From IMG/VR virus record IMGVR_UViG_3300037420_001448, positions 1 to 25,495 of that record: a stretch of DNA of 25,495 nucleotides. The stretch is one strand, 5' to 3'. Position 1 is the first letter of the stretch, and every line of letters starts with the position of its first letter. The translations under genes were made by a program, and so were the position numbers. Shown here in pieces: positions 1-25,084 of the stretch. The DNA comes from a virus. Lineage: Duplodnaviria; Caudoviricetes. The notes beneath the pieces were generated by a model. It was given only the letters and a program-made list of their open reading frames with translations. It had not been told where the DNA came from and made no database searches.

Positions 1-111
1 GGCAAAGACCGTTGGAGAGGCGATCTTGCGGGACAAAAAAATCGAGAAGGAGCGACGATGGAACAACGTACGTTCGCGTGGTAAGCACGTGACGTCGAGA
101 CAGGAGACAAA

Positions 112-495
112 ATGGCTTGGGACAGGGATCGGGCGGCCGCGCTGGCGCCCTCAGAGGAGCCTCAAATGCGACCGCTGATCGAAATGCCGAAATGGGACGG
201 CAAGCTCGTCCTGGGCGCATTCTTTACGGCCGGCTATTTCGCCGTCGCCGCCTGGATCATCAGATTCGCGGGTTTGAACCCGCAGCAAAAAGAGCTCGCG
301 ATGATCGTGCTCGCAGCGCTCGGGCCCCAGCTGGGCCAGATCTACGGCGCCATCTTCCGTACGACCGGAGCCGAAGAGCGAAATTCTGCCCGCCAGGCCG
401 AGACTCTAAAAACCGCGATCGAGACCCCGACGACGGTCGTGCAGCCGGCACCCACAAACGAACAGCCGGACGAAGATCCGGAGATCCTGAAGTGA
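112..495 (+). CDS. Holin-like membrane protein (two hydrophobic segments)
   Basis: Hydrophobic stretches LVLGAFFTAGYFAVAAWII and LAMIVLAALGPQLGQIYGAIF, hydrophilic C-tail; SD CAGGAG before ATG112 and GAGGAG before in-frame ATG166; stop overlaps hydrolase start (GTGA 492-495). Confidence 0.6.
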   Translation: MAWDRDRAAALAPSEEPQMRPLIEMPKWDGKLVLGAFFTAGYFAVAAWIIRFAGLNPQQKELAMIVLAALGPQLGQIYGAIFRTTGAEERNSARQAETLKTAIETPTTVVQPAPTNEQPDEDPEILK

Positions 496-1235
496 CGAAG
501 TTAGCCGCCGCGGCCACGCTTCAGCGTTTCCAAGCGCTCGAGCAGCGTCTGAAGAACGCCGGTCTCTACAACGGCCCGATCGACGACGATTGGGCTGACG
601 GCGTCGACTCGGGGCTCGATGAGTTGTTTGCGAAGGCTGGCTTCAAAGCGCCGGCGCCAGGAGCGGACACCGCTGACCACGCCGGACTCATCGTACCATC
701 GTCTTACGCTTGGCTAGCGCTCGAAACCCCGCTGCCACGGCTAGTTGTCGCCGGAATCAGCCTTCTTGGGACGAAAGAAACACCTGGTGCCGGATCGAGC
801 CCGACAATCATGGGCTGGAAGAGGGAGCTCGCTGCGATCGGCAAGGACGTCGCAGGGTACACGTCCGATGCAGTGCCGTGGTGCGGCTTGGGCATGGGGA
901 AAATCGCCCTCGAGGCAGGATATGAAGCGGAAATCCCAGCGCATCCACTCTGGGCGCTGAATTGGGGCGATTTCGGCGTCGCCGCGAAACAGCCCTGCCT
1001 CGGATCCATCCTGACCTTCGTCCGCGATGCCGGTGGGCACGTCGCTCTCTACATCGCTGAGGATTCGGCCGCGTACCATGTGCTCGGCTGCAACCAATCC
1101 GACAGCGTCACGATCACGCGGATCGCCAAATCGCGTCTGCATGCGTGCCGCGAGCCGGCATACAACGTACGACCAGCGAGCGCGCGGCCGTTCGTCGTCT
1201 CACCCGTCGGCGCGCTCTCCACGAACGAAAGGTAG
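492..1235 (+). CDS. Endolysin: peptidoglycan-binding-like N-terminus + TIGR02594 (NlpC/P60/CHAP-like) hydrolase domain
   Basis: GTG492 in frame with ORF 117..1235; motifs LKNAGLYNGPIDDDW, GTKETPG, VPWCGL (catalytic Cys), GGHVALY (His), LGCNQSDSV. Confidence 0.85.
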   Translation: MTKLAAAATLQRFQALEQRLKNAGLYNGPIDDDWADGVDSGLDELFAKAGFKAPAPGADTADHAGLIVPSSYAWLALETPLPRLVVAGISLLGTKETPGAGSSPTIMGWKRELAAIGKDVAGYTSDAVPWCGLGMGKIALEAGYEAEIPAHPLWALNWGDFGVAAKQPCLGSILTFVRDAGGHVALYIAEDSAAYHVLGCNQSDSVTITRIAKSRLHACREPAYNVRPASARPFVVSPVGALSTNER

Positions 1236-1239
1236 GAAC

Positions 1240-1671
1240 ATGCGACATTTGATCCTTGTCGCCGGCGCTTGTCTCGCTCTCTGCGCGTGCACGCCCGCCG
1301 GAACGACCAGCGTCCATAGTGCGGCCGACAGCGCGTTATCCGTCGCCCAATCGAGCATCGATGCAGCGGCTAACAGCTTCGACGCCGCGCTCTATGGGCT
1401 GGATTTTGCGATGGACGCGAAACTGATCGTGCCCGGCTCAGCTCCCGCGAAGCAGATCGCGTCGATCGGCCGCCAGGTGCAAGCGGCGCTCAACAAGGCC
1501 GACACGCTCCTGAAGGCCGGCAATTCGGCCGGCGCCAAGGCTGCGCTCGACGAAGCCGATGCGCTGGTGAGCCAGTTCAAGTCGCTGCTGCCGCACAAGA
1601 CGACAGGGCTCGCCGCCCCGCCGTTAATGCCCGGCGAGAGATCCGCGGTCCTGGCGCGAGCTGCGGCCTAG
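1240..1671 (+). CDS. Lipoprotein, candidate spanin/lysis accessory
   Basis: ATG1240 after AGGTAGGA; signal peptide MRHLILVAGACLALCA-C with lipobox-like LCAC; Ala-rich helical body; directly follows the endolysin. Confidence 0.65.
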   Translation: MRHLILVAGACLALCACTPAGTTSVHSAADSALSVAQSSIDAAANSFDAALYGLDFAMDAKLIVPGSAPAKQIASIGRQVQAALNKADTLLKAGNSAGAKAALDEADALVSQFKSLLPHKTTGLAAPPLMPGERSAVLARAAA

Positions 1672-1698
1672 TCTGAAACGAGATCGAGGAGAGCAACT

Positions 1699-1950
1699 AT
1701 GAACCTGACGTCCGTTCTTTCGTCGCTTGGGTCGCTTGCCGGCTCAATTGCGACCTCGATCATCCCGGGAGCGGGAGCGATCGAAGACCTGGTCAAAGCC
1801 GGCAAGGCCGTGAGTGACGCCTACAGCAACGTGAAGGTGCTCAATGGGGGTACGGCGCCGGCCGATGCCGACGCGTCGCACGCGGCCCTGATGGAAAAAA
1901 TGAACGCGCATGCCAATGGCACGCTCGGGCGTCTCGAGGGTGGCGACTAG
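1699..1950 (+). CDS. Small Gly/Ala/Ser-rich protein, last gene of lysis cassette
   Basis: SD GAGGAG, ATG1699; amphipathic N-terminus; stop TAG shares the CTAG at 1947-1950 with the convergent gene. Confidence 0.65.
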   Translation: MNLTSVLSSLGSLAGSIATSIIPGAGAIEDLVKAGKAVSDAYSNVKVLNGGTAPADADASHAALMEKMNAHANGTLGRLEGGD

Positions 1951-2156
1951 AGGAGCGATCCTTCGGTCGGTCTGTCACCAACAACCGGCGGAGGCGAGGC
2001 TGGATTCTCCCGAATTCGTTCGGGAAGGATCCAGCCTCTTCCTTTGCAGCCCCCGCATTGGGGCTCTTTCTCGCCGCGATAGCCGCTTCCGTGGCACCAA
2101 CCGCATTTCCACGCCTCGGGATGAGGAGAGGGCAGGATCTGGTGCTGGACGACCAA
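1947..2156 (-). CDS. Small zinc-finger protein (two CxxCxGxG motifs, DnaJ central-domain type)
   Basis: CGWCHGSG and CGGCKGRG; TTG start 9 nt after the stop of 2166..2396. Confidence 0.65.
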   Translation of the reverse strand: MVVQHQILPSPHPEAWKCGWCHGSGYRGEKEPQCGGCKGRGWILPERIRENPASPPPVVGDRPTEGSLL

Positions 2157-2165
2157 TCGATACGC

Positions 2166-2396
2166 CTATTTCCCGCCGACAAGACGCGCGAGGAAGCCGC
2201 GATCGTCCTTGGACGAGAGGATGCTGCCCGCGAGTTTCTTTCCGTCGCCTAGCAGCTCCATGTAGAGCTCCATCGGCACGTACTCGCGATCATCGTTTGC
2301 GGGTATGTCCGCGCGCTTCACGCCCTGGACGTTGCGAATATGCAGGATCTTCCCCGCGACTTGCCGGCGGCGATCCAATGACTTCTTTGACGGCAT
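2166..2396 (-). CDS. Hypothetical basic protein (76 aa)
   Basis: Strong SD AAAGGAG 7 nt before ATG2396; preceded by a structured intergenic region. Confidence 0.7.
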   Translation of the reverse strand: MPSKKSLDRRRQVAGKILHIRNVQGVKRADIPANDDREYVPMELYMELLGDGKKLAGSILSSKDDRGFLARLVGGK

Positions 2397-2572
2397 GGCC
2401 TGTCTCCTTTCCGTCGTTACCGAGCTGCGGGATCGTCGAGACGTTCGGCAACGTCTGCCACTTCCCCCGCGGGAGGGCCGTTAGCACAAAACAAGGCGTG
2501 AGAAACTAAACTTAAGTTCACGTACGTCCCAAAATCCGTTGGGCCCCAACGACGAAACGACGTTAATCGTGT

Positions 2573-2827: not shown

Positions 2828-2838
2828 ATGCGCCTCCG

Positions 2839-3066: not shown

Positions 3067-3581
3067 TCCCCTCCTGTCTGTAGGGCGGCGCTACCATGCT
3101 CAATCGCTTGGATTTGTGCGACTGTGGCCGTGTTGAGTTCGCCTGCGAGATATTCTTTCGCGAAGTTCAATGCGCTTCGCAACCTCTCTCGTTCTTGCGT
3201 TAGAGGGGCTATGACTTTGGCTTCGATTGCGCGGGCGTCGTCTCGAAACTTTGCGGCCATTTCGGCGGGCATAAGATGCAGACAGCCTCGGATCGGCGGC
3301 GCTCCATTTCGCATTCCGATCTGATTTGCCAAAGCCTCCGCAACCCGCTCAACAACATCGTCAGTCACTACGGTAGGGCGGCGGTTCCAGAGGAGCGCGG
3401 CTTCGGCTTTTTCGGCATCCGACGCTTTTTCACTAGCGAGCGTCACATACGGTCCAGCACAGCCGCAGTCCGAGCAAGCGCCGCGAACGAAGCCGAAGTC
3501 CTCGGTGTCGATTTCCAGAAAGACGCCGCGCTTAACTTCATGCGGAAACGGACACGCGTCCAACTTCACTTCACCTGACAT
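3063..3581 (-). CDS. Lar-like (restriction alleviation) zinc-ribbon protein with C-terminal extension
   Basis: KLDACPFPH...CSDCGCAGP...AEAALLWNRR matches the Lar-family pattern (LxxCPFC...CxxCG.GP...A...WNRR), with the second Cys of CPFC missing (CPFPH). Confidence 0.6.
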   Translation of the reverse strand: MSGEVKLDACPFPHEVKRGVFLEIDTEDFGFVRGACSDCGCAGPYVTLASEKASDAEKAEAALLWNRRPTVVTDDVVERVAEALANQIGMRNGAPPIRGCLHLMPAEMAAKFRDDARAIEAKVIAPLTQERERLRSALNFAKEYLAGELNTATVAQIQAIEHGSAALQTGGE

Positions 3582-3777: not shown

Positions 3778-3827
3778 ATCGTCAGTCCTTGTTCTGGGCG
3801 TCATGCTGCGATCTCTGCAGCTTGGTA

Positions 3828-3850
3828 GTGTACCAAAAGTGTCCCAAAAA
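3828..3850 (+). repeat. Left arm-type integrase-binding repeats (GTGTACCAAAA, GTGTCCCAAAA)
   Basis: Two 11-bp direct repeats about 90 bp left of the att core, same unit and orientation as at 4051-4072. Confidence 0.7.
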
Positions 3851-3941
3851 ATTAGCGATCCAGCGTTCGCTGACGTCTGCATTTGGCATGCAAACGTTAC
3901 GTGCAACCGCGATTTTCCGGGAAAATTGGCCGGTGTACCAG

Positions 3942-3988
3942 CCTTCACACGGGTGGGGTCACAGGTTCGATCCCTGTCGCGCCCACCA
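3942..3988 (+). mobile_element. attP: attP core: 3' half of tRNA-Val(CAC)
   Basis: CC-TTCACAC-GGGTG-GGGTC-ACAGG-TTCGATC-CCTGT-CGCGCCC-A-CCA: anticodon loop (CAC), T-arm, acceptor 3' strand and CCA; no 5' acceptor strand or D-arm upstream; 18 nt from the integrase stop. Confidence 0.9.
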
Positions 3989-4006
3989 GCGCAAAAGCGT
4001 TGGTAT

Positions 4007-5299
4007 TCAAACACTTTTACCGCCAGTGATGCTGACGACATTGTGCCCATGTGTCCCAAAAGTGTCCGAAAAAGCGCCTGGGGCAAGCTTTTCGATCTCC
4101 CCGACGATGCCCGTCGTGACCGCGAGCACGCGGCCCAGGTGAGATCCGTCCGTCAGGGCGTAAATGTCGCTGATATCGGGCTGGACGTGCCCAAGCATGA
4201 TCTTCCCTTGGATCCAGTGCGCCTCGCCGAGCCTTTTGCGCGCGATTGTAGCGATCGAGCGGCGAATGAGCTTCATCCCGGCCTGTCCTTCGCCCGGAAG
4301 CCCCAGATCCTGCCTCATGCGGCTCCACGTGGCCTTTGAGAGGCCCTGAGGGACGACCGGACCAACGAAACTGTCGAGCCACCACGCGCAGACCTCAGGA
4401 ACGACGATTGTCGCCCGGAATTTGCGGGTCTGGCGCCTGCTGATTGGGTTGAGGTTGAAAACCCGGGCCTTGGAGTACCATTGCTTGCGCTCCGGTGCCG
4501 TCGACGCGTCCATAATCGCGTCCGGCCGGGCCCAGCTGATGACCGCGAAGCGCAAATAGGCGAGTAAATTGGCCCTGGAATCCACGATTCGGGCACGATC
4601 TTTGTCCGTTCGCGCCGGCGGATTGAGGCAATAATTGAACATTCTCGCCATCGTTTCGACGCTGGCTCGGTACTCCGGCGAGCGGCTGAGCTCACGGAGC
4701 TGCCGCGGTTTGAAGAGGATCGGCGATTTATCCCAGCTGAGAGCGGCCCGCAGCTGCATTACCGGCCCCTCGATCGTCGATGGAGAGCGGAATCTTGGCT
4801 CAAAACCCTCCTCTTCGAGCGATTCTGCCTCTTCCGGCGTCACTCCGATGCGATATCGGCCCTTCACGACGAAATAGGGGTCTGCAGCGAGCCAATCGCG
4901 GAATTCTTGGATCCAGCGTTCGTCGACGGTCTCTGGGTAGACGGCGGGGTCGGGCAGCTGCGCGATGAAACGCAAGACGTGGTCGAGTCGGTCGGAAATA
5001 GAACCTTCAGTGTCCCGAGTAGACGCGTGCGCGAGGAGGTAGTCTGCAATTATCGAGGCGACGAGGCGCTTTTCCTCGCCTTCCCAGGGCCGGTGGCACG
5101 TCGGGCACCGCCTCTCGTTGAGGTAGATCCTGTCGAGCTCGAGCTTCGCCGCTTCGAGATCCCGCGTGCCCGCACTAAGGCGTCGTTCGCACTTTCCGGC
5201 ATCGTCGTACCAGATGATTTGGTGGTGGCGCCCTTCCTTTGCGTAGAGGGCGTATTTTCCCCGTTGATAGAGTGGTTTCTTGCGACGTGTTCGCGGCAT
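4007..5299 (-). CDS. int: Tyrosine recombinase / phage integrase
   Basis: WARPDAI (Arg I), KLIRR (HxxR position, Lys for His), MLGH, SDIYA (Tyr); N-terminal basic arm-binding-like region; ends beside the att core. Confidence 0.9.
   Translation of the reverse strand: MPRTRRKKPLYQRGKYALYAKEGRHHQIIWYDDAGKCERRLSAGTRDLEAAKLELDRIYLNERRCPTCHRPWEGEEKRLVASIIADYLLAHASTRDTEGSISDRLDHVLRFIAQLPDPAVYPETVDERWIQEFRDWLAADPYFVVKGRYRIGVTPEEAESLEEEGFEPRFRSPSTIEGPVMQLRAALSWDKSPILFKPRQLRELSRSPEYRASVETMARMFNYCLNPPARTDKDRARIVDSRANLLAYLRFAVISWARPDAIMDASTAPERKQWYSKARVFNLNPISRRQTRKFRATIVVPEVCAWWLDSFVGPVVPQGLSKATWSRMRQDLGLPGEGQAGMKLIRRSIATIARKRLGEAHWIQGKIMLGHVQPDISDIYALTDGSHLGRVLAVTTGIVGEIEKLAPGAFSDTFGTHGHNVVSITGGKSV
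4051..4072 (+). repeat. Right arm-type repeats (GTGTCCCAAAA, GTGTCCGAAAA) inside the 3' end of int
   Basis: 11-bp direct repeats matching 3828-3850, preceded by partial GTGCCCAT. Confidence 0.7.
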
Positions 5300-5451
5300 T
5301 GTCTTTCCCGTGCGTCCAGGGCTGCCGCTTGAAGTTTCGCGTAGGCGCCGCAGTCCACGAGCAGCGCCAGGTCGTCGTAAGTCAGTTGCAGCCCGCGGCC
5401 GATATCTAACTTACGCTCCATCCGGCGCAATAGGTCTTGCAGCGCAAGCAT
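5050..5451 (-). CDS. Hypothetical protein directly upstream of and overlapping int (excisionase position)
   Basis: ATG 1 nt after the upstream stop; ordered N-terminal ~50 aa, then a low-complexity tail overlapping int by 250 nt in another frame. Confidence 0.55.
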   Translation of the reverse strand: MLALQDLLRRMERKLDIGRGLQLTYDDLALLVDCGAYAKLQAAALDARERQCREHVARNHSINGENTPSTQRKGATTKSSGTTMPESANDALVRARGISKRRSSSSTGSTSTRGGARRATGPGKARKSASSPR

Positions 5452-5452
5452 T

Positions 5453-7002: not shown

Positions 7003-7583
7003 TGAGTGACCTCCGGCCGCGTGAGGTCGTTGAATCGCTCGTCGGCGAGGATCGCGCTCTTCATGGCCCAGACAGCGCCGCCAACATCGCGATTGTCCGG
7101 CCAAGGCACTTGCAGGAAGACGGACGAAGGCCGCGCCGGCGTATCTCCCGTCGGAAAGCTCGTGATTGCGTGGAAGGCCCTGGCGACGTCGAAATGGATG
7201 GCGCGGCCGGGCCAGAGCTCAACCGCCCCGAAACCCATCGTCGGGACTTGGGATTCCTCCGGCTTGTAGATACAACCCGCCTCGCGCTGCCCAGCGGGCG
7301 CGAACAGTAAAACTGGACGCTCCTCCGCTTCGAGCACGAACGTGAACATCGTCGAGCATGACTCGGCAGCGTTCGGCGGCTCGATATGCACGGGTACGGA
7401 ACCGCAGCAGACGCACATGAAAAGCGGAACGGTCCCATCCGCGGCCTTCAGGGCCGTGCGAGCGAGTGGATATGCTTCGCTCGTCGGCGGACAAATCTCC
7501 CGGATCCTGTCACAGAAGGCCGCGACGTCGCCGATCTCTACTGCCGGGCTGAAATAGCCAATGCTCAGACCGACCGGGCTCAT
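6999..7583 (-). CDS. Putative 2-oxoglutarate/Fe(II) dioxygenase-like (DSBH) protein
   Basis: VPVHIE (HxE), FTFVL, ELWPGRAIHFD..AFHAI (distal His), then RPS (RxS); ATGA-coupled on both sides. Confidence 0.5.
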   Translation of the reverse strand: MSPVGLSIGYFSPAVEIGDVAAFCDRIREICPPTSEAYPLARTALKAADGTVPLFMCVCCGSVPVHIEPPNAAESCSTMFTFVLEAEERPVLLFAPAGQREAGCIYKPEESQVPTMGFGAVELWPGRAIHFDVARAFHAITSFPTGDTPARPSSVFLQVPWPDNRDVGGAVWAMKSAILADERFNDLTRPEVTQ

Positions 7584-7924
7584 CGCGGCACCAGAGTCTT
7601 GAAGGCACGGTCGTGCGGAGCGCCCTTATCGAACGCGACGAGCTCCACGACGTCGCCGAGCGCGACGATCTCAACGTCGGCGCCCCACATCGTCTCCGGC
7701 CGTTCGTACGCTTCATTCGAGAAATCTGGATTCCGCGCACGTAAGACGTCACGCATGTTAACGACCCCGAGCCGCCACTTGTGCGGCTCGAGGTTCGTCC
7801 TCGTGGCATGCGCGAAGAGCTCAGCCATGACGCGGCCGGTCCAGGTAGGATCTCGAGCGTCCATAATGAACATTGCCGCGCCTCCACGTACGTCGAGGCA
7901 ATTCTGACGTACGTCTTCAGTCAT
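7580..7924 (-). CDS. Hypothetical protein
   Basis: Start and stop overlap neighbours in a tightly packed operon. Confidence 0.6.
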   Translation of the reverse strand: MTEDVRQNCLDVRGGAAMFIMDARDPTWTGRVMAELFAHATRTNLEPHKWRLGVVNMRDVLRARNPDFSNEAYERPETMWGADVEIVALGDVVELVAFDKGAPHDRAFKTLVPR

Positions 7925-8168: not shown

Positions 8169-8173
8169 GTCTC

Positions 8174-8428
8174 TTACTTCGATTCCTTGAACGTCAGCAC
8201 GTCACGTGCGGCGATCGTCACTTGCTCGCCGGTCCGCGGATTGCGGCCGACGCGCTGGTTGCGGTGCGTCTGCTTGAACGTGCCAAAACCACGGATCGTG
8301 ACGCGGTCGCCGTTGGAGACCACGCGCTTGATCGCCGTGGTGACGGCGTCGATCGCTCGTTCGGCGGCGGCGTTCGTCCCGAACCCGTCGCCGTAGAGCT
8401 TCACTTCATCAATCAGTTTCTTGCTCAT
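8174..8428 (-). CDS. hup: HU-family histone-like DNA-binding protein
   Basis: GDRVTIRGFGTF...RVGRNPRTGEQVTIAA signature; SD GAGGAGG. Confidence 0.95.
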   Translation of the reverse strand: MSKKLIDEVKLYGDGFGTNAAAERAIDAVTTAIKRVVSNGDRVTIRGFGTFKQTHRNQRVGRNPRTGEQVTIAARDVLTFKESK

Positions 8429-10320: not shown

Positions 10321-11441
10321 CAGGCGGCAACCTCCGGATATTCGTTCCACTCACGGCCATCGATCTCGCGGCCGGCAATTTTCTTACCGACGCGGTTGAT
10401 TTGAATCGGCTGTATGCCCGGCGTGCCGTAAACCTTGTGCCCGTTAGACCATGCACCGAAGACGGTCTGTTTTCCGTTGCCCGTACGGTTGGATTCAATC
10501 GTCGTTCGGCTAACCGCCTCGCGCTGTTCTTTTGTCCTGCACTGCGTGAAGGGTAGCCAGTCACCCCATTGTTTGAAATGGAATGCGACACCCGCCTGGA
10601 CGCACTGGTCGCGTAACGAGATCGCCCAGGCGGGGTGCATCGGCCGCGAGTTGGGGCCGGACTCGCCTCCGACAACGACCCAATCGACGAGCGGAAGGCC
10701 TTCGAAACCGGCAATGCCCGTGAAATCACATTTAGCGCAGCATTCCCGAAGCCCCGTCGTCATATCCATCGGTATGTCGTCGGACCAATTCGGGCAGACA
10801 AACCATTCGTCGAGGTCGACCGGCCCCAGCAGTGGTTCGCAGGATAACCAGCGCACCGCCGCCGGCGTTTCGAGCAGCAGCGGAATTCGTTCATCCGCAC
10901 GCCTCTGGTCTTCGACGCTCGTCCCGAGCCAGACATTCCGCGGCGGCCAGTGAATGTCGACCTGGTCGGCCGGCGTGTCCTGCTTTCCGCCGTGGTGCAT
11001 CGCATTAGCGAAGCGCGCAGCGGTCACATGCTCAGGTTCGTCCAGAACCTCACGCATGTAGTCGCGCATCCGCTCGGTCCGCTTGGTGAGGATCTGGAAC
11101 GTGTGCCTCGGGTTGAGCAGCGCGACCATGAAGACATAGTCGATCCATTCCTCCGGCACCTTTTCGTGGAAGAGGTCGCCATGCGCGCAGACGAAGATCC
11201 GGCGAGGGGTCTCCCACTGGAAAGGCTCGAGCGCCACGCGCCGGTTGAACAGAACCTCGCCGGTCCAGACCGGGTTGCCGTTGACGGTCTTGGTCAGACC
11301 CTCGCGGCTCGGGCTGTTGCGGAGCCGCGTGCCCGCCAGGCGCATCGCATAGCAGTTGGTGCACCCAGGGCTTAGGACCGTGCATCCGTTGATGACGTTC
11401 CACGTTGCGTCGGTCCATTCGATGTGCGTGCCGTCAGCCAT
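10320..11441 (-). CDS. Phage Gp37/Gp68 (DUF5131) family protein
   Basis: TxIEWTDATWN, GCTVLSPGCTNCYA, GDLFHE, HTFQILTKR, NVWLGTSVEDQ, LSCEPLLGP, WVVVGGESG, FHFKQWG. Confidence 0.92.
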   Translation of the reverse strand: MADGTHIEWTDATWNVINGCTVLSPGCTNCYAMRLAGTRLRNSPSREGLTKTVNGNPVWTGEVLFNRRVALEPFQWETPRRIFVCAHGDLFHEKVPEEWIDYVFMVALLNPRHTFQILTKRTERMRDYMREVLDEPEHVTAARFANAMHHGGKQDTPADQVDIHWPPRNVWLGTSVEDQRRADERIPLLLETPAAVRWLSCEPLLGPVDLDEWFVCPNWSDDIPMDMTTGLRECCAKCDFTGIAGFEGLPLVDWVVVGGESGPNSRPMHPAWAISLRDQCVQAGVAFHFKQWGDWLPFTQCRTKEQREAVSRTTIESNRTGNGKQTVFGAWSNGHKVYGTPGIQPIQINRVGKKIAGREIDGREWNEYPEVAA

Positions 11442-11670
11442 TGGCTTCGTCCCTGCCGAGCAGCTTCCTCAGCTCCCGCAGCTCTTCCTCCTCGTGCGGA
11501 ACGAGCCCGAAAGTTTCGGCGTCGGATTCCAGAGCTTCGATCCGGCCCTCAGCCTTCGCTCGCCAGTACCAGGCGTCGATGGGATGCTGCAGCCCGATCT
11601 CGATATCGGAGACTCGCGCCTTGCTACGCTCGGCATCCCACAGATTGAGAGGATGGACCGCTTCAGCCAC
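11434..11670 (-). CDS. Hypothetical protein (78 aa)
   Basis: GTG11670 overlaps the stop of the upstream gene; C-terminal acidic/basic helix. Confidence 0.55.
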   Translation of the reverse strand: MAEAVHPLNLWDAERSKARVSDIEIGLQHPIDAWYWRAKAEGRIEALESDAETFGLVPHEEEELRELRKLLGRDEANG

Positions 11671-11968
11671 GGACGGCGCGCTCGTTGCCGGCGTCTTCCA
11701 TGTAGGAGTCCGCCCAGCCCATGCGCTTCGCGCGAGACCAATCGCTTTGGAAATAGACGCCGCGCTGATGTGCCTTGTATCCACGTACGTATTCGCGACG
11801 TGCGACGAAGATCCACGCCGCGACGAGCGCGACGACGACCGACGCGAGCCATAGCTCGTGAACCAGACTGAGCCGCAGGACCGCGCTTACCGCGGCGATG
11901 ACCAGGAGCGCCGCCAGCAGCGTCATGACCGAGAAGAAAAAGCGCTGCCCGAAATTCTTGTTCAACAT
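11663..11968 (-). CDS. Two-TM membrane protein with C-terminal Rmf-like motif
   Basis: ATG11968 after GGGGA; two hydrophobic helices then EYVRGYKAHQRG...RMGWAD. Confidence 0.6.
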   Translation of the reverse strand: MLNKNFGQRFFFSVMTLLAALLVIAAVSAVLRLSLVHELWLASVVVALVAAWIFVARREYVRGYKAHQRGVYFQSDWSRAKRMGWADSYMEDAGNERAVRG

Positions 11969-11984: not shown

Positions 11985-12323
11985 TTATCCCAGACGCGGG
12001 ACGCTTGAATCGTCCCAATCGGTTTTCCTTCGGGGAGTCGCCTTCGGGTCGTACGCATCGTTGCGTCGTGCCCAGCGGGACCTTTCGACGAGGAAGGTAT
12101 ATTCCTTCTCATCGATCGGATCGCTCAGACACACCGGCCAAACACGGTCGAGCTCGATGAGCTCGCCATCAGCCTCCGCCTGCCAGCGCCAGACACGATC
12201 CATGACGTCACGTGTCCAAGGCTCGAGCGGTGGGCCATGCCAGATCCGAATTCCGACGAGGGGACCGCCGCGGACCAGCCGCATTCGATAGTACCCCTCG
12301 GTCGGTTCATCAGCCTTCAGCAT
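11985..12323 (-). CDS. Hypothetical phage protein, first gene of the leftward operon (not a repressor)
   Basis: PTEGYYRMRLVRGGPLVGIRIW...WP...PIDEKEY; no HTH; start could alternatively be 12374. Confidence 0.7.
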   Translation of the reverse strand: MLKADEPTEGYYRMRLVRGGPLVGIRIWHGPPLEPWTRDVMDRVWRWQAEADGELIELDRVWPVCLSDPIDEKEYTFLVERSRWARRNDAYDPKATPRRKTDWDDSSVPRLG

Positions 12324-12513
12324 GTGCCCGTGCGTTAAGCGACGAATCGCCGATGCCCCATTGGGTAAAGCCATTATCCATTGGGGCGCAATACCACGTC
12401 GAAAAAAAAACGTGCACGTCACGTGCCAGCGTCTAGTCGCCGACGTTAGGCGCCGCGAAAAAACGTGAGTCGTAACGTTGACGAACGTCGTTTTTTTAAC
12501 CTAGCCATAGGAA
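12324..12513. promoter_or_regulatory. Divergent early control region
   Basis: Strand switch; dyad GCCCCATTGG-N13-CCATTGGGGC (12355-12387); A/T tracts; TTGACG at 12478-12483; 8 ACGT in 12396-12488. Confidence 0.75.
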
Positions 12514-12765
12514 ATGACAGGTGGACGGGCAGCGCCGAACCAGGCGCGACACATCATCAATTTGCTAGGCGGCAGGAAGCCGGCGGAGCGCGTTTTGGGT
12601 TGGCCGAGAACGAAGGTCGACTCGGCGATTCGCGCCGGTTTCATCCGCTGCCAGGATCAACGCCACGTGCTCGAGCGGGCATGGGACGCCGGCATTCACA
12701 TCAACCCTGCGGACTTCATCGTTCATCTGGACGGGCTGACCCGGCGAATCACCACGGACGCCTGA
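12514..12765 (+). CDS. Cro-like HTH protein (carph-isopro/YdaS-like)
   Basis: IINLLGG...VLGW.RTKV...GFI...VLERAWDAGIHINPADF pattern; first rightward gene. Confidence 0.65.
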   Translation: MTGGRAAPNQARHIINLLGGRKPAERVLGWPRTKVDSAIRAGFIRCQDQRHVLERAWDAGIHINPADFIVHLDGLTRRITTDA

Positions 12766-12766: not shown

Positions 12767-13534
12767 GTGCCGAGCCTCCAACTTGAACGGTTCTTCCAGC
12801 TGCGCGCGAACGGCGTCTTCGTCGACGATGCCGCCGAGCAAGCCGGTCTTGGCATCGCGGAAGCGCGACTCTGGGAACGCGAGATCGCCGCCGGGGAAAT
12901 CATCTTGCCCGAACCATCAACGAAGGAGACGACCATGCCAGTTGGAAAGACGAACGAAGAAGAGGAGCTAGAAACCCCTCAGCCGCACATTGCAGCGGAT
13001 ATCGGCAAGATCGCGGAGCTCATCAAAAAGGATGGGCCGATGGACAAGCTGCTCGAGAAGCTAGCGACGGCCCGCGGCGCCCTCGCCCAGAAGTACCAGC
13101 ACATCGAGAACGACCTTCACGGCAACCGCAAGGCGGTGAAGCTCGTCATCACATTGCTTAACGGCACGACGGACGCCGCCTACGATTTCATGCGGACGTT
13201 CATGCGGCTGGCCGCTGTCTTCGATCTCCTGCCGGCTGACGATCTCGTCGACCTGGCGGAGAAGGTAGACCAGGCGAAGCCGAAGGATGAGGATTCCGGC
13301 GTCTCGACGGCCGACATGGCGCCAAAGAGCGCAGAGGTCGTGGATCACCCAAGCCGCGAGAATGCGATCGACCGGCACAAGAAAGCGCTGGCAGGCGGAG
13401 AGAAACCGCCGGCGCCGGACGGTCCGGAAGGAGACACGGATTTCATCGAAGCGGCGGACGCCGTTGCGGCTGAGATCGAGCAACAGCGTTCCGAGGACGC
13501 GCAAGCGTTCGAACAGACGTCCCCGGCCGCCTGA
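12767..13534 (+). CDS. HTH + GapR(DUF2312)-like helical DNA-binding protein with acidic tail
   Basis: N-terminal HTH-like GVFVDDAAEQAGLGIAEARLWE; central helices ARGALAQKYQHIENDLHGNRKAVKLVITL resemble GapR by eye; second in-frame ATG12935 with SD AAGGAG. Confidence 0.5.
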   Translation: MPSLQLERFFQLRANGVFVDDAAEQAGLGIAEARLWEREIAAGEIILPEPSTKETTMPVGKTNEEEELETPQPHIAADIGKIAELIKKDGPMDKLLEKLATARGALAQKYQHIENDLHGNRKAVKLVITLLNGTTDAAYDFMRTFMRLAAVFDLLPADDLVDLAEKVDQAKPKDEDSGVSTADMAPKSAEVVDHPSRENAIDRHKKALAGGEKPPAPDGPEGDTDFIEAADAVAAEIEQQRSEDAQAFEQTSPAA

Positions 13535-17947: not shown

Positions 17948-18851
17948 TCCAAAAAGGAAGAAGCGGGCCCGGCCGCTGGTCCGCTGGCACGGCGGCAAGT
18001 GGATGATCTCGCAATGGATCCTGGGCTTCCTGCCGCCCCATGACACGTACGTCGAGCCTTTCGGCGGGGGAGCATCGATCCTGCTTCGCAAGGAGCGCGC
18101 GCGGAAGGCGGAAATCTATAACGACCTGGACGAGACGCTCGTTCGATTGTTCAAAGTGCTGCAAGATCCCGACAAGTCTCTGCGCCTGCTCGAGCTGCTG
18201 CGCCTGACGCCATACGCGCGAAAGGAATTCGATTGGGCGTACCGGCCGACGAAGGACGACGTCGAGGGGGCCAGGCGAACGCTCGTACGTTCGTGGATGG
18301 GTTATGGCAGCGACGGCACCGCCGGCGTTTACAAGACCGGCTTTCGGTCGATCGTGAACCACGCCGGGAAGACGCCGGCCGGGGAATGGGTTAACTATTG
18401 CGCGACGCTGCCGGCGACGATCGAACGTCTGCAAGGTGTGAACATCGAATGCCGCGACGCGTTCAAGGTTGCGAAGCAATATGACACGCCGGAGACTCTC
18501 TTCTACTTCGACCCGCCCTATCTTCCGGAGACCAGGTCAGTTGGGAATCGCCGGCGCGGCGCTGGCTACCATGTCTACCAGCACGAGCTCACGACCGAGG
18601 ACCACGTACGTCTCCTCGATTTTCTCGAAGGTCTGCAGGGGATGGTGATCCTGTCCGGATATCCGTCGGCGCTCTATGAACAGCGCCTGGCGAAGTGGAA
18701 GAGGCACTCCCGAAAAGCGTACGCCGATGGTGCCATGCCAAGGACGGAGGTTGTCTGGATCAATCCCCGTTGCGCGGCCAGGCTGCGCGAGGAGGAGCGT
18801 CAGCGGCAGACACCGCCGCAACTTTCGCTGTTGGCAGGAGCGCTCGCGTGA
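17937..18851 (+). CDS. Dam-like (D12 class) DNA adenine methyltransferase
   Basis: GTG17937 after GGAG; RWHGGK, YVEPFGGGASI, YNDLD, YFDPPY, ILSGY, RTEVVWIN. Confidence 0.92.
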   Translation: MISDPKRKKRARPLVRWHGGKWMISQWILGFLPPHDTYVEPFGGGASILLRKERARKAEIYNDLDETLVRLFKVLQDPDKSLRLLELLRLTPYARKEFDWAYRPTKDDVEGARRTLVRSWMGYGSDGTAGVYKTGFRSIVNHAGKTPAGEWVNYCATLPATIERLQGVNIECRDAFKVAKQYDTPETLFYFDPPYLPETRSVGNRRRGAGYHVYQHELTTEDHVRLLDFLEGLQGMVILSGYPSALYEQRLAKWKRHSRKAYADGAMPRTEVVWINPRCAARLREEERQRQTPPQLSLLAGALA

Positions 18852-19222
18852 CCGACCTCACCGTTTCCAAACCAACGTTCCTCGAATTGTCTAACGCGCT
18901 CGCGAAAGCCGGCCGGCTGGATCTTCTCAACGAAGATGGGGCGGTCGAGTGTGGCAACCTGACGATCACTACTGCTGATGCCATTCCCCAGGCGTCTCGC
19001 CTCGCTGCAGCGATGGATGACGCTGCGGCCAAATACACGGCGCCATGCGAGGCAGCCTATGCGGACGAGGACGTCGAGGTCCATGTACGGCACAAGGCCG
19101 ACGGAATTCATGTGATCGAGCGCCGGCCCGGTCTGGAACAGCGCGTCGTCACCATGCCGACCCTTGCCGTGCCCGGGGTCATCGAAGGTTTGGTCGAGTC
19201 GTTGGTGAAGCCCGCGATCTGA
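18848..19222 (+). CDS. Hypothetical protein
   Basis: GTG18848 (GTGA overlap) with SD AGGAG. Confidence 0.6.
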   Translation: MTDLTVSKPTFLELSNALAKAGRLDLLNEDGAVECGNLTITTADAIPQASRLAAAMDDAAAKYTAPCEAAYADEDVEVHVRHKADGIHVIERRPGLEQRVVTMPTLAVPGVIEGLVESLVKPAI

Positions 19223-19226
19223 CGTT

Positions 19227-19262
19227 TCGTTTTGTCTCATTTTGCAACGTGAGACGAAACGA
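19227..19262. promoter_or_regulatory. Inverted repeat upstream of the terminase genes (late promoter operator or cos candidate)
   Basis: TCGTTTTGTCTCA-N10-TGAGACGAAACGA, 12/13 match; TTGCAA-N16-TATCAA overlaps it. Confidence 0.5.
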
Positions 19263-19280
19263 TTATCAACGTGCGCGGGT

Positions 19281-19901: not shown

Positions 19902-22056
19902 TGGCGTAGCCGGCTATTACGCGCGCTGCCGCGCACTCGAGGTAGAGCTTCGTCACGCTGCCAGCGAGGACGTCTACCCGAAAATGGGTGAGTTGGCGGC
20001 GACGGAGATCGATGCTCTCCTTCCCATTGAGCTCATCAGCACGGACGAGGTCGCGAGGAAATATCGCAAGCTGCCGAAGATCGGCGGCGGCAGCATGGAT
20101 TTCGACGAGAAGAAGACGCCGTACGTGAAGGATATCCACGGCGCGCTCGATGATCCATCGAAGCGGATTGTGCTCGTCCAGGGCAACGCACGCGGCGTGA
20201 AGACGACCGCAGCTGAAAACAAACTCCTGAAGATCGCCAAGTTCGGACCGGCCCAGGGCGTGCTCTGGTACATGCACTCCGAGCCGGATCTTCGCCGCTA
20301 CGTCGAGGAACGCGTCGAATTCTTCTTCCAGGAGCATGAGCTGGAACACAAGATCTCCGGCCGCGGCGGACGATCCAAATGGAACATCAAACGCGTTGAC
20401 GGGATGGTCTGGGAGTGGCTCGCTGCGAACGCATCGACGACGCGCGCTCGTTCGGCCGCTTTCATCGTCGGCGATGAGGTCGACGCGATGCGGCCGGCAA
20501 TCGCCAATGCTCTTGTAACTCTCTTCCGCAACCGCCAGCGCGAATATGGAAACCTCGCGAAAGCCTACCTGTCATCGCACCCTGACCGCGGCCCGACGGC
20601 CGGTATTTCGTCACTGCTCCTCGATTCGGATCGCCGGCTTCGGTACTGGACGTGCCCCGACTGCGCGCACCTGATAAGCCCATGCAAGGAGGCACCGAAG
20701 GACAGGCGCGTTACGTGGAACGTGCCGGAGCTGCTCAAAGAGGCGGGGGAGACAATGGACCGCGACGAGCTGCTGGACCTAGTTGAAGCTAACGTCTTCC
20801 TCGTTTGCCCGCACTGCAAGCGGAAGATCGCGAACGAAGAAAGATTGCAGCTCGAGCGCGACACCGGACAGTGGATCGGCAAGGGGCAGGAGATCGACGA
20901 GCACGAGAACGTCGTCGGCGAGCTCATCAAACACGATACGGCCGGCTTCATCATCCATGCGTTCATGACGCCGTTCGTGACGCTCGGCGGGCTGGCTCGG
21001 GAATGGACAGGCGCCTACCTCAACTATCTCAACGAGGGCGGCCAGGCGAAGGCCAAGGTCGGCAAGAAATCGAAGGAGCAGGATAAGAACGCTGCCGCGC
21101 TCTTGAAAGAGGTCAACGTCAAGTCGCTCGGTGAGGTTCACGAGGACCCTGACAATTCGGCCGGAAAGGTGCGCGACTGGAAGGAAACCAAGGCGGCGCA
21201 TCTGGACACTGGATACCGGATGAAGACCGTGCCCCGAGGGGTCGATTTCCTGACTATGATGGTCGACGTCCAGGGCAACCGCTTCGAAGCCGGCGTCTGG
21301 GGTTGGTCGCGTAGTCGCGAATGCTGGCTTGTCGATCGCTTCGCCATCAAACAGCGGATGGGTCTGAAGGATATCAATCCTGGTGAGAACATCGACGATT
21401 GGAACGTCCTCGAGGCGGCCCTGAGTTTCACCTATCCGACGCAAGAGGATCCGTCGAAGCATCTGATGATCGCGAAGATGGCGGTCGACACTGGCGGTGT
21501 GCCAGGCGTCACCAACAATGCGCGGATCTGGGCCGCGAACATGCTTGCCGCCGGCAAGTGTCCGTCGTGGCGGCTGATGCTCTCGAAGGGCGATCGACAT
21601 TTGCTCGGCGATCTCTACGGCAAGCCCAATCGCATTAGCGAGGACGACGGCGGCCGTCCGTTGCCTGTCACGGTCATCGAGCGAATCGTCAACGTGTCGG
21701 CCGTCAAACGCGTGATGGCGCGCCGGCTGGACATTCCCGAGCCCGGCCCTGGCTTCGTCCATCTGCCGTCCGATATCGAGGATCGGTATATCCGCGAGCT
21801 CGTCGCCGAAGTCGAAGTCAATGGAGAATGGATCCGGCGCGGCGCGAACGAAACGTGGGACACGCTCATAATGTGCGAGGTCGCGCGTGCGTTGCTGGCG
21901 CCGGAAAACAAAGCGATCGACTGGCTCAACGACCGGCCGGTCTGGGCAACGCCGTTCACTCCATCGCAAAACTCACGTAACGATGATAACAGACCACGTG
22001 ACGTCGATTTCTTCGATCGGCTGGGCCGACTGAATAGGGGTGAGACGAGAAAATGA
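19891..22056 (+). CDS. terL: Terminase large subunit, lambda GpA family
   Basis: TPYVKDI, Walker A-like NARGVKTT, Walker B FIVGDEVD, CPDC/CPHC, MVDVQGNR, AVDTGG, NETWDT. Confidence 0.9.
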   Translation: MPLDGVAGYYARCRALEVELRHAASEDVYPKMGELAATEIDALLPIELISTDEVARKYRKLPKIGGGSMDFDEKKTPYVKDIHGALDDPSKRIVLVQGNARGVKTTAAENKLLKIAKFGPAQGVLWYMHSEPDLRRYVEERVEFFFQEHELEHKISGRGGRSKWNIKRVDGMVWEWLAANASTTRARSAAFIVGDEVDAMRPAIANALVTLFRNRQREYGNLAKAYLSSHPDRGPTAGISSLLLDSDRRLRYWTCPDCAHLISPCKEAPKDRRVTWNVPELLKEAGETMDRDELLDLVEANVFLVCPHCKRKIANEERLQLERDTGQWIGKGQEIDEHENVVGELIKHDTAGFIIHAFMTPFVTLGGLAREWTGAYLNYLNEGGQAKAKVGKKSKEQDKNAAALLKEVNVKSLGEVHEDPDNSAGKVRDWKETKAAHLDTGYRMKTVPRGVDFLTMMVDVQGNRFEAGVWGWSRSRECWLVDRFAIKQRMGLKDINPGENIDDWNVLEAALSFTYPTQEDPSKHLMIAKMAVDTGGVPGVTNNARIWAANMLAAGKCPSWRLMLSKGDRHLLGDLYGKPNRISEDDGGRPLPVTVIERIVNVSAVKRVMARRLDIPEPGPGFVHLPSDIEDRYIRELVAEVEVNGEWIRRGANETWDTLIMCEVARALLAPENKAIDWLNDRPVWATPFTPSQNSRNDDNRPRDVDFFDRLGRLNRGETRK

Positions 22057-22313
22057 GCCTCTACGGTAGCTACTCCGACGACGATCTTGCCGCCGAGATC
22101 ACCGACCTCAAAGCGCGCATCATCGCGGCCGGCAAGGCTGACGACGCCGGCGTTTCCGTTGTCGCCGGAGAACGCCGCCGCATCGAATGGACTCGCACCC
22201 AGGGCCGCGGCGTCCAGCAACTCGCCAATCTGCGAGAGCTGCTGCGCGAGGCTGAGGCCGAAATGACGCGCCGCACCAGCTGCGGCGGCGGTGCAATTGG
22301 AGTTGTCTTCTGA
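22053..22313 (+). CDS. gpW-like head-tail joining protein
   Basis: Small protein between TerL and portal; GERRRIEWT...LANLRELL. Confidence 0.7.
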   Translation: MSLYGSYSDDDLAAEITDLKARIIAAGKADDAGVSVVAGERRRIEWTRTQGRGVQQLANLRELLREAEAEMTRRTSCGGGAIGVVF

Positions 22314-24139
22314 TGGCTACGCGTCGCCAGCCGCCGAAAGGCGCTATCACCACATCGCTGAAGCCGCCGAAGAAATTCGCGATGCCGACTGGCGCACGAC
22401 CATCCGCACTGCGTGATCCGGCGTTCGACTATGGCATGACGCCGTACGGACGGCAGGCGTACCGCGACGCCAATCCGGCGCTATGGGGCAATGGCGGCCG
22501 TGCGATCTTCTCACCGTCCAGCCCGAATCGGGAGATCAACCCGAGCCGTGCGAGCGGCGTCAAGAACGCCCGCGAGGCGGACCGGAACCAGCCGCTCATC
22601 AACGCCGGGATCTCGAAGCGCGCCGCCAACGCCGTCGGTGCCAACCTCCGCCTGCAGTATCTCCCGAATTGGGAAGCGCTCGGTATCGATCCCAACAGCG
22701 ATGAGGCGGTTTCGTTCGTCCAGACGATCGAGAACCATTTCTCGCTATGGGGCGAGGACTTCCGATTCCTTTGCGACGCGCAGCGCCAGGGGCAATTCGG
22801 CGCTCTCATGTTCCTTGCATGCCGGGAATGCTTTGGCGCGGAAGGCGAGACGCTGGTTATCGCGCGCTACGACGAGGACCGCATGGTCCGCTATCAGGGC
22901 CAGTACGCGACGTTCATCGAGGTCGTCAGCGTCGATCGCCTCAGCAATCCGTCCGATTACGCGCTCGGCGATCCGAACAAGCCCGTGATCTGGATGGGCA
23001 AGGAGGTCGACGAGTACGGCGCCGCGGTAGCGTACCACGTCGAGACCGTGCACCCGTCCGATTCGCTCACCGGCGAACGTAAGTGGGAACGCATCGTTCG
23101 CGAGACCGATTGGGGCCGCCCCGTCGGCATCCATTATTTCTCACGCACCCGGGCGGGAATGCAGCGCGCCATGCCGGCGATCATCCAGTCGCTCCGCACG
23201 GTGAAGATGCTGGATCGGCTGGACGACGCTCAGCTGCAGTCGGCGATCATCAACGCGATCCTCAGCGTCTACATCGAGTCGCCGGGCACGACCGCCGAAA
23301 TGATCCAGAAGCTGACGGCCGGCACTCCATCCGGCGCGTCGGATCCGCTGTCCAACTTCTTCGACAAGCGCTTCGACTATTATGAGAACGAGGACAATTC
23401 GCTGACGGCCGACGGCGTCCGCATTCCGGTTTTGCCGCCCGGCGACAAGATCTCGATGGAGGCGGTCAACCGTGCCGCCGACGATCCGACGGACTTTCGT
23501 TCGTCGTTCCTCCGCGTGCTCGCCGCGCAGCTCAACCTCACGTACGAGCAATTCAGCGGCGACTATTCGAAGACGACCTTCTCGAGCGCCCGCGCGGCGA
23601 TCATCGATATCTGGCGGCTGGTCACGCTGGACAGGATCTTCTTCACCCAGCACGTCGCCTATCCGATCTTCGCCGCCTGGCTCGAAGAGTGCTACGTCCG
23701 CGCCGACGAGCTCGGGATCGACTGGCCGTCGACATGGCCGGACTTCCACGAGAATATGGCCGCGTTCACGCAATGCGAATTCCGCGGTCCTGGCATGGGC
23801 TGGGTCGATCCGCAGAAGGACGTTACCGCGGCCGGTCTGCGCGTCGAGCAGGGGTTGACGTCCCCGACGTTCGAAGCCTCGCAGCAAGGCCAGGACTTTC
23901 GCGACAACGTCGATCAGACTGCCCGCGACTATGCGTACGCGCGCTCTAAAGGCGTCGCGATTCCCGGCATGCCCGAATATACCGCGATGCAGAACCCGGT
24001 GCCGCCGGCCGATCCCAACGCGGACCCCAACGCGAGCGACGGCAGCAACTCAGGCCAAGATCCTTCGGGCTCGCAGCCACCGGCGAATGAGGATCAGGCG
24101 CGAGCTGAAGAGCTCGAGCGTCAGGAGAACCGACTGTGA
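22313..24139 (+). CDS. Portal protein, lambda family
   Basis: AREADRN, GKEVDEYGAAVAYHV, LTYEQFSGDYSKTTFSSARA, GMGWVDPQKDV. Confidence 0.92.
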   Translation: MATRRQPPKGAITTSLKPPKKFAMPTGARPSALRDPAFDYGMTPYGRQAYRDANPALWGNGGRAIFSPSSPNREINPSRASGVKNAREADRNQPLINAGISKRAANAVGANLRLQYLPNWEALGIDPNSDEAVSFVQTIENHFSLWGEDFRFLCDAQRQGQFGALMFLACRECFGAEGETLVIARYDEDRMVRYQGQYATFIEVVSVDRLSNPSDYALGDPNKPVIWMGKEVDEYGAAVAYHVETVHPSDSLTGERKWERIVRETDWGRPVGIHYFSRTRAGMQRAMPAIIQSLRTVKMLDRLDDAQLQSAIINAILSVYIESPGTTAEMIQKLTAGTPSGASDPLSNFFDKRFDYYENEDNSLTADGVRIPVLPPGDKISMEAVNRAADDPTDFRSSFLRVLAAQLNLTYEQFSGDYSKTTFSSARAAIIDIWRLVTLDRIFFTQHVAYPIFAAWLEECYVRADELGIDWPSTWPDFHENMAAFTQCEFRGPGMGWVDPQKDVTAAGLRVEQGLTSPTFEASQQGQDFRDNVDQTARDYAYARSKGVAIPGMPEYTAMQNPVPPADPNADPNASDGSNSGQDPSGSQPPANEDQARAEELERQENRL

Positions 24140-25074
24140 CCCGCAACCGTTCGCTCGTCCGCGTCTCGCAGCAGCTCTTCAATCAACCCGCGTTCGTCAC
24201 GGAGAAATGGGCGTCCGTGCTCCTGTCCGCCGTCCGGAGCGAGCTCAACATCGACCTCATCACGCGAACGGACGGATCGACGCTCGATCGCGTCGGCATG
24301 GACCGGCTGGCAAGGGACGCCCGCGAAGCCGTGGATATTCGCGACGACCGCCGCGCGCAATATCGCGTCTACGAGGTCAACGACGGTGTCGCTGTGATTC
24401 CGATCGAGGGCACTCTGACGCGCACGTGGGGACTCGATCCGTACAGCGGTTTCACCGGCTATGACGGCATCAAGACGAAGCTCGTCGCCGCGATGGAAGA
24501 CGAGGACGTCAAGGCCATCATGCTCGATATCGATAGCCCTGGCGGCGCAGTCAGCGGTTGCTTCGACCTGGTCGACCTCATCTACGCGCTGCGCGAGGAC
24601 AACGTGAAGCCCATCGGGGCGATCGCGAACGAAATGGCGTGCTCGGCGGCCTACGCGATCTTTTCGGCCGCGACGCCCGGCTATCGGTTCGTGCCGCGCA
24701 CCGGCGAGGTTGGATCGATCGGTGTGCTCATGATGCACACGGACGTACAGAAGGCGCTCGCGCTGGATGGAATCGGCGTGACGATATTCCGCGCCGGCAA
24801 GTGGAAGGCTGAAGGGAATCCGTACGAAAACCTGAAGGAACCGACCATCGAGCGGATCCAGCAAACGCTCGACGAAATGCGGGATCTCTTCATCGATACG
24901 GTGGCACGTAATTTGACGTCACGTGGCGGCGACGTGGACGCGATGAAAAAAACTGTTCGCGAAACGGAAGGCTTGACGTATATCGGGCGTCACGCACGGG
25001 ACATAGGGCTGGTCGACGAGGTCGGGTCCGAGGATCAACTTTGGGCACGGCTGCAGGAGCTGCCGACACGGTAA
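24136..25074 (+). CDS. S49 family prohead protease (lambda gpC-like)
   Basis: VAVIPIEGTL, LDIDSPGGAVSG, MACSAAYAI, VGSIGV, GKWKAEGNPY, GLVDEV. Confidence 0.92.
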   Translation: MTRNRSLVRVSQQLFNQPAFVTEKWASVLLSAVRSELNIDLITRTDGSTLDRVGMDRLARDAREAVDIRDDRRAQYRVYEVNDGVAVIPIEGTLTRTWGLDPYSGFTGYDGIKTKLVAAMEDEDVKAIMLDIDSPGGAVSGCFDLVDLIYALREDNVKPIGAIANEMACSAAYAIFSAATPGYRFVPRTGEVGSIGVLMMHTDVQKALALDGIGVTIFRAGKWKAEGNPYENLKEPTIERIQQTLDEMRDLFIDTVARNLTSRGGDVDAMKKTVRETEGLTYIGRHARDIGLVDEVGSEDQLWARLQELPTR

Positions 25075-25084
25075 CGTGACGTCT

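Follow-up and report, generated by a model that had tools for sequence, protein, structure and literature searches.

Why does the genome of a tailed soil phage carry a short tandem palindrome at many of its predicted promoters and gene junctions, and what kind of protein would read it? The question arises from a 25,495-nucleotide stretch of viral DNA (Duplodnaviria; Caudoviricetes; positions 1 to 25,495 of IMG/VR record IMGVR_UViG_3300037420_001448), here called the window, in which the motif ACGT-N(0-1)-ACGT is dispersed. The tandem ACGT enrichment in the window is real, and the code formed by the sites is phage-specific and probably regulatory. In the reading that we favor, to which we assign a probability of about 0.58 from sequence comparisons, the sites would constitute a dispersed, low-information operator network for a single lineage-specific repressor, putatively encoded by the phage itself.

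Enrichment and spacing of the tandem ACGT motif

A count over the whole window found seven copies of the N0 form, ACGTACGT (at 66, 2520, 7886, 7907, 11783, 18045, and 18604), and eight of the N1 form, ACGTNACGT (at 87, 3894, 8199, 12205, 12416, 21996, 24916, and 25074), with none beyond these 15, which confirmed every site that a first-pass annotation had listed. Single ACGT tetramers number 142, and the GC content is 61.8% rather than the ~64% given by that annotation. Shuffles preserving k-mers of order 2, 3, 4, 5, and 6 (300 per order, 1500 in all) yielded expectations of 0.34, 0.83, 1.37, 2.26, and 3.93 tandem sites, respectively, which places the motif ~10-fold above chance (15 seen vs ~1.4 expected from 4-mer shuffles); the highest count in any shuffle was 9, and none of the 1500 attained 15. 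The annotation had estimated under one copy by chance, and the excess that it claimed withstood this null. With proteins held fixed by synonymous-codon shuffling, nine tandem sites lay within genes where 0.58 were expected. The start of ORF 7580-7924 was then shifted to 7873, because its homologue aligns from residue 18 and because of a GGAGG; seven genic sites remained against 0.57 expected, a number reached in 0 of 2000 shuffles, and the pair at 7886..7914 is probably intergenic. To control for the look-elsewhere effect, tandem ACGT sites were also counted in 56 viral loci of at least 12 kb (1.006 Mb in all), picked up by an unrelated cos-end pattern that matched too widely to trace relatives. 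These loci contain 18 such sites, at most two in any one of them, and none of their tandem 4-bp palindromes came near the window's p of 2e-10. These enrichment tests support the earlier proposal of a dispersed, selected binding code. An assembly artifact was rejected on the strength of identical pieces in independent sequencing, in which two runs besides the probable source carry long pieces of the window with 0 differences; runs X2 and X3 are near-identical to its left half and yield no signal of conservation, and X4 and X5 contain small shares.

Seven of the eight N1 sites read ACGTGACGT on one strand, CACGTGACGT occurs six times against 0.13 expected, and the longest enriched word, CACGTGACGTC, occurs four times. 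A longer hidden consensus was rejected, as tallies of the flanks around the tandem sites revealed no further consensus beyond the 8-9-bp core. Besides the 15 exact sites, the 25.5 kb contain 33 sites with one mismatch, a set counted without a null. The orientation of CACGTACG is evenly split (3 vs 4), and the N1 sites, taken alone, lean in orientation (six of seven assignable; CACGTGACG, 4 vs 1).

The annotation had also described the sites as often helically phased, a claim that was modestly supported for the pairs and unsupported for the genome at large. Four of the 15 neighbor distances within 60 bp are 21 bp, and the recurrence of any one distance four times has a p of 0.007, whereas pooled ACGT pairs across the genome show no significant 10.5-bp phasing (p=0.27). 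In the control region, the eight ACGT are weakly phased (p=0.02), a 31-32-bp spacing is in no excess among neighbor distances, and most tandem sites have no partner inside 60 bp.

A separate feature of the window is that certain coding words are strongly avoided, namely CTCCAG (1 vs 22 expected), CATCTC (0 vs 17), GACATC (0 vs 17), GAGGCC (2 vs 26), and AGTTC (13 vs 48); the avoided words are probably host restriction sites.

Sites at predicted promoters and their absence from relatives

The density of ACGT is 23.6 per kb in non-coding DNA and 4.8 per kb in genes, a five-fold difference, with 24 non-coding copies seen vs 6.5 expected. A start codon is found within 130 bp of 12 of the 15 tandem sites (p=0.002) and, with pairs merged, of 10 of 13 (p=0.007). 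The 100-bp windows at five predicted promoters, which were chosen with the site positions already known and of which the rightward, terS, and terL-internal ones were defined by conservation in relatives, contain 4, 4, 5, 3, and 3 ACGT (19 in total), and the 12 orthologous windows from relatives contain 2. Alignment with relatives revealed an invariant TTGAC in the promoter-like element before Cro, and a second element, in the 3' end of terL, has an invariant TCGCA followed by TG-N-TA in five of five genomes and probably drives the head genes. DNA-level conservation of this terL-internal element spans 21964-21992. ACGT tetramers of the control region overlap the predicted leftward -35 box (12402-12397) and the conserved rightward -35 box TTGACG (12478-12483). 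At the predicted lysis and terL-internal promoters, one site of a 21-bp pair falls in the spacer and the other just past the -10 box, and two single ACGT 22 bp apart adopt the same arrangement at the terS promoter. Sites lying across -35 boxes, spacers, and start regions, at early as well as late promoters, are arranged as for repression, not activation.

A mechanism for such a network can be sketched. The protein would read ACG(T) half-sites with loose spacing and would bind cooperatively where half-sites abut (N0-1) or cluster. In the lysogen, protein on the -35, spacer, and start regions would keep RNA polymerase from both early promoters and from those of terS, the head genes, and the lysis genes, and the intragenic copies might be weaker sites, for loading or as road-blocks. 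Each 21-bp pair would accommodate two protein units on one face of the helix, straddling the -10 box.

Eleven related contigs with TerL identities of 36-67% hold four tandem sites in 322,656 bp, and the syntenic 65.6-kb relative G001:C66 (TerL 67%; hereafter G001) has 0. Conservation in relatives, which the annotation had put forward as a check, was thus not found at these distances, an outcome that fits a phage-specific operator and not a family-wide packaging or partition signal. Where the window has coding sites, the relatives use different codons or residues; for the H-V-R at 18604, G001 has the motif-free CAT GTT CGG. One hint of conservation in a closer relative comes from TerL P0002, which has S-R-N-V where the window has P-R-D-V and could encode the N1 form (ACGTAACGT). 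The nearest TerL proteins are P0001-P0003, at 75%, the nearest Cro-like ones P0061 and P0062, and the nearest fusion P0187. GTAC is nearly absent (0-2 copies) or CGTACG is missing from genes in the relatives G001, L043, L046, and L047, and in G002 and G003, and the window has 54 GTAC and 20 CGTACG; lineages that avoid these words could not retain the N0 site. G001 has short (ACGA)n runs near 3140, 45300, and 65490, and ACGAACGA occurs in it 27 times vs 7 expected.

The probable hosts carry 168 copies of ACGTACGT in 61 genomes, ~0.9 per Mb vs 275 per Mb in the window (~300-fold rarer), so the comparison with host density that the annotation had suggested left its claim intact. CACGTGACGT was found 209 times in 201 probable-host genomes (0-5 per genome), against six in the window. 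A family-wide or host-wide motif was rejected by these relative and host counts. Scans of viral contigs for paired sites returned 15 and 3 loci, not identified as relatives, and the best of them, L015 and L005, have five and four tandem sites, two of each being forced by the query. A search for close prophages in 401 Sphingomonadaceae genomes yielded just three distant TerL matches (29-31%). Three Sphingomonadaceae regions, L313 (7 copies), L307 (4), and L308 (3), carry a dispersed motif GACGGCG(G/C)TA, on one strand per region, which may be an antitermination or operator element. No description of the tandem ACGT motif turned up in the phage literature, of which subscription papers were mostly outside reach.

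The motif co-occurs with an integrase and an attP site, both of which the apparently complete G001 is without; no integrase match was found in G001 and the related phage contigs, and no repressor family among 30 scanned G001 proteins. Twenty-two phage loci share the integrase, and the 21 of at least 9 kb carry 0-1 tandem sites each; the motif therefore did not arrive with the integrase. Its lineage specificity and its co-occurrence with integrase and attP together point to a phage-encoded lysogenic repressor. No CI family was found among the 40 window proteins, and none lies opposite Cro, so repression needs some other part.

Several observations weigh against the repressor reading. A near-palindrome of 8-9 bp holds little information for a repressor, and 7 of the 15 tandem sites are genic, three of them more than 150 bp from a start. 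The promoters are predictions, the leftward and lysis ones being weakly conserved, and some promoter ACGT derive from the -35 boxes themselves (TTGACG+T; G005 shares one at 12396). The signal is also partly diffuse, in that genes contain a halo of ACG-N-ACG (66 vs 27 expected under the synonymous null; z of 7.8 in the window and at most 1.7 across nine relatives) with no strand bias (33 sense, 33 antisense), and the same null over-calls unrelated words, such as CCGGC (242 vs 155). The link to lysogeny draws on one apparently complete motif-free relative, the others being fragments. Finally, the reader stands at candidate level, and four genomic regions with distant members of the candidate's HTH family contain no tandem site across 160 kb, a result that counts against the fusion protein discussed below.

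Table 1. Positions of tandem and clustered ACGT sites and of associated features in the window
Feature	Position	Strand	Remarks
Left end	1..62	+	9-nt end, then conserved ACGT-free block; homologous start in window, G001:C66, and G002
Tandem sites 66 (N0) and 87 (N1)	66..95	+	At predicted lysis promoter, in spacer and just after -10; -35 59-64, -10 82-87
Orphan 76-aa gene	2166..2396	-	Region upstream rich in ACGT; weak candidate as regulator
Five ACGT including tandem site 2520	2441..2563		Lie across predicted minus-strand -35 (2532-2527), upstream of gene 2166-2396
Single ACGT 3873 and tandem site 3894	3873..3902		21 bp apart; between arm-type repeat (3828-3850) and attP core
attP core	3942..3988	+	Matches tRNA 3' end; tRNA-like loose ends at 3942 and 3988
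Tyrosine integrase	4007..5299	-	46% identity to annotated tyrosine recombinases
52-aa gene preceding integrase	5296-5451		Conserved; co-conserved upstream of integrase
N0 pair, 21 bp apart	7886..7914		Abuts GGAGG ribosome site of gene starting 7873
N1 site	8199..8207	-	3' end of HU/IHF-like gene; codons R-D-V
N0 site	11783..11790		Over GTG start of ORF 11434-11784
N1 site	12205..12213	-	Inside first leftward gene; R-D-V
Control region	12396..12488		93 bp with eight ACGT, tandem site 12416 among them
Cro-like HTH gene	12514..12765	+	No CI gene opposite
HTH-GapR-like fusion	12767..13534	+	HTH (residues 1-50) fused in frame to GapR-like protein; internal start 12935
N0 site	18045..18052		In D12 adenine methyltransferase gene
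N0 site	18604..18611		In D12 methyltransferase gene; CAC GTA CGT
Three single ACGT	19222..19272	+	Around conserved terS promoter; -35 19242-19247
Promoter-like element in terL 3' end	21964..22004	+	Near-site 21975 in spacer, tandem site 21996 over predicted start
ACGT cluster with tandem site 24916	24906..24935		Inside S49 protease gene
N1 site	25074..25082	+	At protease stop, 26 bp before next start

The window encodes lysis genes, an integrase, an HU-like protein, RecT, a Cro-like protein, MT-A70, DnaB, an O-like initiator, a D12 methyltransferase, lambda-type TerS and TerL, a portal, and an S49 protease (Table 1). Position 1, at which G001, G002, and a contig of run X2 likewise begin, is probably the cos left end of the virion genome, and the two ends of G001 share 9 nt with inverted AACG/CGTT flanks; some 40 kb of the genome would lie outside the window. 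Just before the lysis genes, three contigs of the family have a common conserved start (loci noted: window, L067, and L071, each at 1-62, and the end of L070), and the probable cos ends are ~19 kb from terS. The attP core, read by eye as part of a tRNA-Val, has one mismatch to 46 of 401 Sphingomonadaceae genomes, which suggests this family as host, tentatively since other families were barely sampled. Arm-type repeats flank the core at 3828-3850, 4011-4018, and 4051-4073, the right-hand ones inside the integrase 3' end. The integrase and the tRNA-Val attP indicate that the phage is probably temperate. Directly after site 25074, a perfect 7-bp hairpin (CCTCCTG/CAGGAGG, 25083-25104) takes in the ribosome site of the next gene, which begins at 25109.

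Candidate readers and rival explanations

The reader may lie in the ~40 kb outside the window, or it may be the HTH-GapR-like fusion at 12767, which is the best candidate within the window and unproven. A single-sequence model of its N-terminal 50 residues gave a three-helix HTH (pLDDT 79-90), and the annotation's labels of Cro-like and HTH-GapR-like were both borne out. This HTH is missing from the N-terminus in eight of eight relatives examined, one of which (G003) has a weak C-terminal copy. Five of 14 aligned members of the HTH domain family of such fusions carry Pfam GapR, and the window protein itself has no Pfam match. The small HTH, without a Pfam match and corresponding to 12767-12934 in the window, is fused to GapR or GapR-like domains in P0187, P0199, P0201-P0207, P0210, P0217, and P0218, a fusion family that is uncharacterised in the libraries searched. 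Cro is disfavored as reader, since the predicted recognition helices of the window and of motif-free G001 are almost alike (PRTKVDS vs PLTKIDS); Cro as a whole is conserved in G001 at 52%, and the HTH-Gp88-like protein at 60%. The orphan gene at 2166-2396 has no family, no homologue, and no match in relatives, and its model is helical at low confidence (pLDDT 54). The region around it (2166-2572), with its own promoter-like region and ribosome site, is absent from the syntenic relative and resembles a moron insertion.

A more far-reaching version, which we consider unlikely, is that a lytic cos-phage lineage turned temperate without CI by gaining an integrase module and having its inherited promoters and codons rewritten with abutting ACGT units, read by the HTH fused to a GapR-like nucleoid protein as a sequence-guided, chromatin-like silencer. 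If true, a whole phage genome would be silenced through a 4-bp code with flexible spacing.

Explanations other than a phage repressor must be set against the same evidence. ACGT might be a methylation target, the paired sites acting as an epigenetic switch or reflecting methylation-driven enrichment, as with the GATC pairs of Dam and SeqA. The window encodes two adenine methyltransferases (MT-A70 and D12), its ACGT content is 1.23-fold above third-order expectation, and the eight ACGT of the control region recall the clustering of GATC at oriC. Both enzymes are nevertheless kept in G001 (61% and 73%, respectively), with 0 tandem sites in 65.6 kb and an ACGT ratio of 1.08, and L019 has both with one site in 15.8 kb; no SeqA-like family occurs among the 40 window proteins, and general phasing is not significant. 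Methylation is accordingly given a small chance, and the annotation's suggestions of a SeqA-like system and of TerS as reader, the latter being 64% conserved in the same motif-free relative, are weakened together. TerS enters again in the equally improbable account in which a protein of architecture, packaging, or self-recognition (TerS, HU-like, or GapR-like) is loaded at the sites and marks phage DNA instead of repressing promoters. The sites extend over the whole window, the first at 66 bp from the probable cos end and one pair in attP, the motif is far rarer in probable hosts, and HU-like and GapR-like proteins are encoded. The conserved cos-proximal block, however, stops before 66 and contains no ACGT, TerS and HU are conserved in G001, and such a role does not need placement on promoter elements. 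A host transcription factor, as CtrA, LexA, or Spo0A in other phages, could also bind the sites, and co-option of host factors is documented in alphaproteobacterial phages (PMC9437464). The window has no CI, and a small host regulon would likewise be rare genome-wide. Against a host factor, 60 motif-bearing loci from probable hosts, a single one taken for each genome and motif and most of them in ORFs, share no neighboring gene beyond two pairwise matches, the CtrA box TTAA-N7-TTAA has 0 matches at one mismatch or fewer, and the relatives lack the motif, which leaves this explanation, too, with a low probability.

Less probable still is an origin of the words in a mutational or codon-context bias peculiar to the lineage, without any bound protein. 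The ACG-N-ACG excess is diffuse and without strand bias, G001 for its part is enriched in ACGAACG (38 vs 16.6), and avoidance of several hexamers by the phage distorts codon pairs. Such a bias is difficult to reconcile with the five-fold non-coding concentration, the nearness to starts, the use of rare GTA and CGT codons, an excess that outlasts 6-mer shuffles, and the lack of a comparable tandem palindrome in the 56 control loci. The least probable of the explanations considered is that the sites work at the RNA level, either by forming self-complementary stems or as targets of a translational regulator near ribosome sites. A ribosome site or start codon adjoins each of sites 87, 7886, 11783, and 25074, and sites 7886 and 7907 together form a 9-bp inverted repeat, but many sites lie in -35 boxes or spacers, upstream of any predicted transcript, and most have no nearby partner with which to pair.

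Comparison with known systems

In the SeqA/Dam system, tandem GATC pairs are spaced about one helical turn apart. The window resembles it in its paired 4-bp palindromes, some two turns apart, its dense control region, and its Dam-family methyltransferase, and differs in that another tetramer is used, the units abut, no SeqA-like gene was found in the window, and the methyltransferases do not track the motif. The Cox protein of P2 and the Apl protein of 186 bind arrays of short repeated sites at the lysis-lysogeny control region and at attP, and the presence of ACGT sites at both of these places suggests a similarly cooperative, low-specificity binding. Unlike those arrays, the window sites are found also over late and lysis promoters and within genes, and the window has no Cox or Apl family match. 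Terminase sites of the cosB type would be restricted to the cos end and kept along with TerS; the window sites differ in being genome-wide and absent from the aligned left ends of G001 and G002.

Phages that rely on host factors, such as CtrA in phiCbK-like phages and in Sphingomonas phage MMDA13, or LexA, are described in PMC9437464 as having clusters of short sites in promoter regions with no phage CI nearby, as seen here. Unlike the CtrA type described there, the window is without a CtrA box, and no conserved host regulon with the ACGT motif came to light among the 60 probable-host loci.

The closest parallel is the stoperator network of cluster A mycobacteriophages (L5 gp71, Bxb1, TipsytheTRex), which comprises 20-30 oriented sites (PMC6550527), each a 13-bp asymmetric sequence bound by a two-domain monomer with an HTH and a Stoperator domain (PMC9283540). 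As in those descriptions, many copies are spread across a temperate genome at promoters and in short intergenic spaces, and the repressor would act outside a lambda-type cI/cro switch. The cluster A motif differs among related phages; here the relatives are without the motif, and no replacement dispersed motif was identified in G001. The window core is shorter (8-9 bp), palindromic save for its center, and built of 4-bp units with 0/1 spacing in loose clusters, and its sites are not orientation-locked, with about half of them written into codons. No two-domain stoperator-type repressor family occurs among the 40 window proteins, a search confined to the window, with ~40 kb outside it. The annotation's stoperator-like repression therefore does not hold in the strict sense: the network works like an operator/stoperator system but fails in length, asymmetry, and orientation, and it is not a member of that class. 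Its very short, flexibly spaced unit is unusual. The genome-wide operator networks known from mycobacteriophages have long, specific sites, and abutting 4-bp palindromes with variable spacing would amount to silencing of a phage genome by a cooperative code of very low information. Set beside its motif-free relatives, the window appears to capture operators placed onto conserved promoters, and it offers a testable case of how a repressor network originates.

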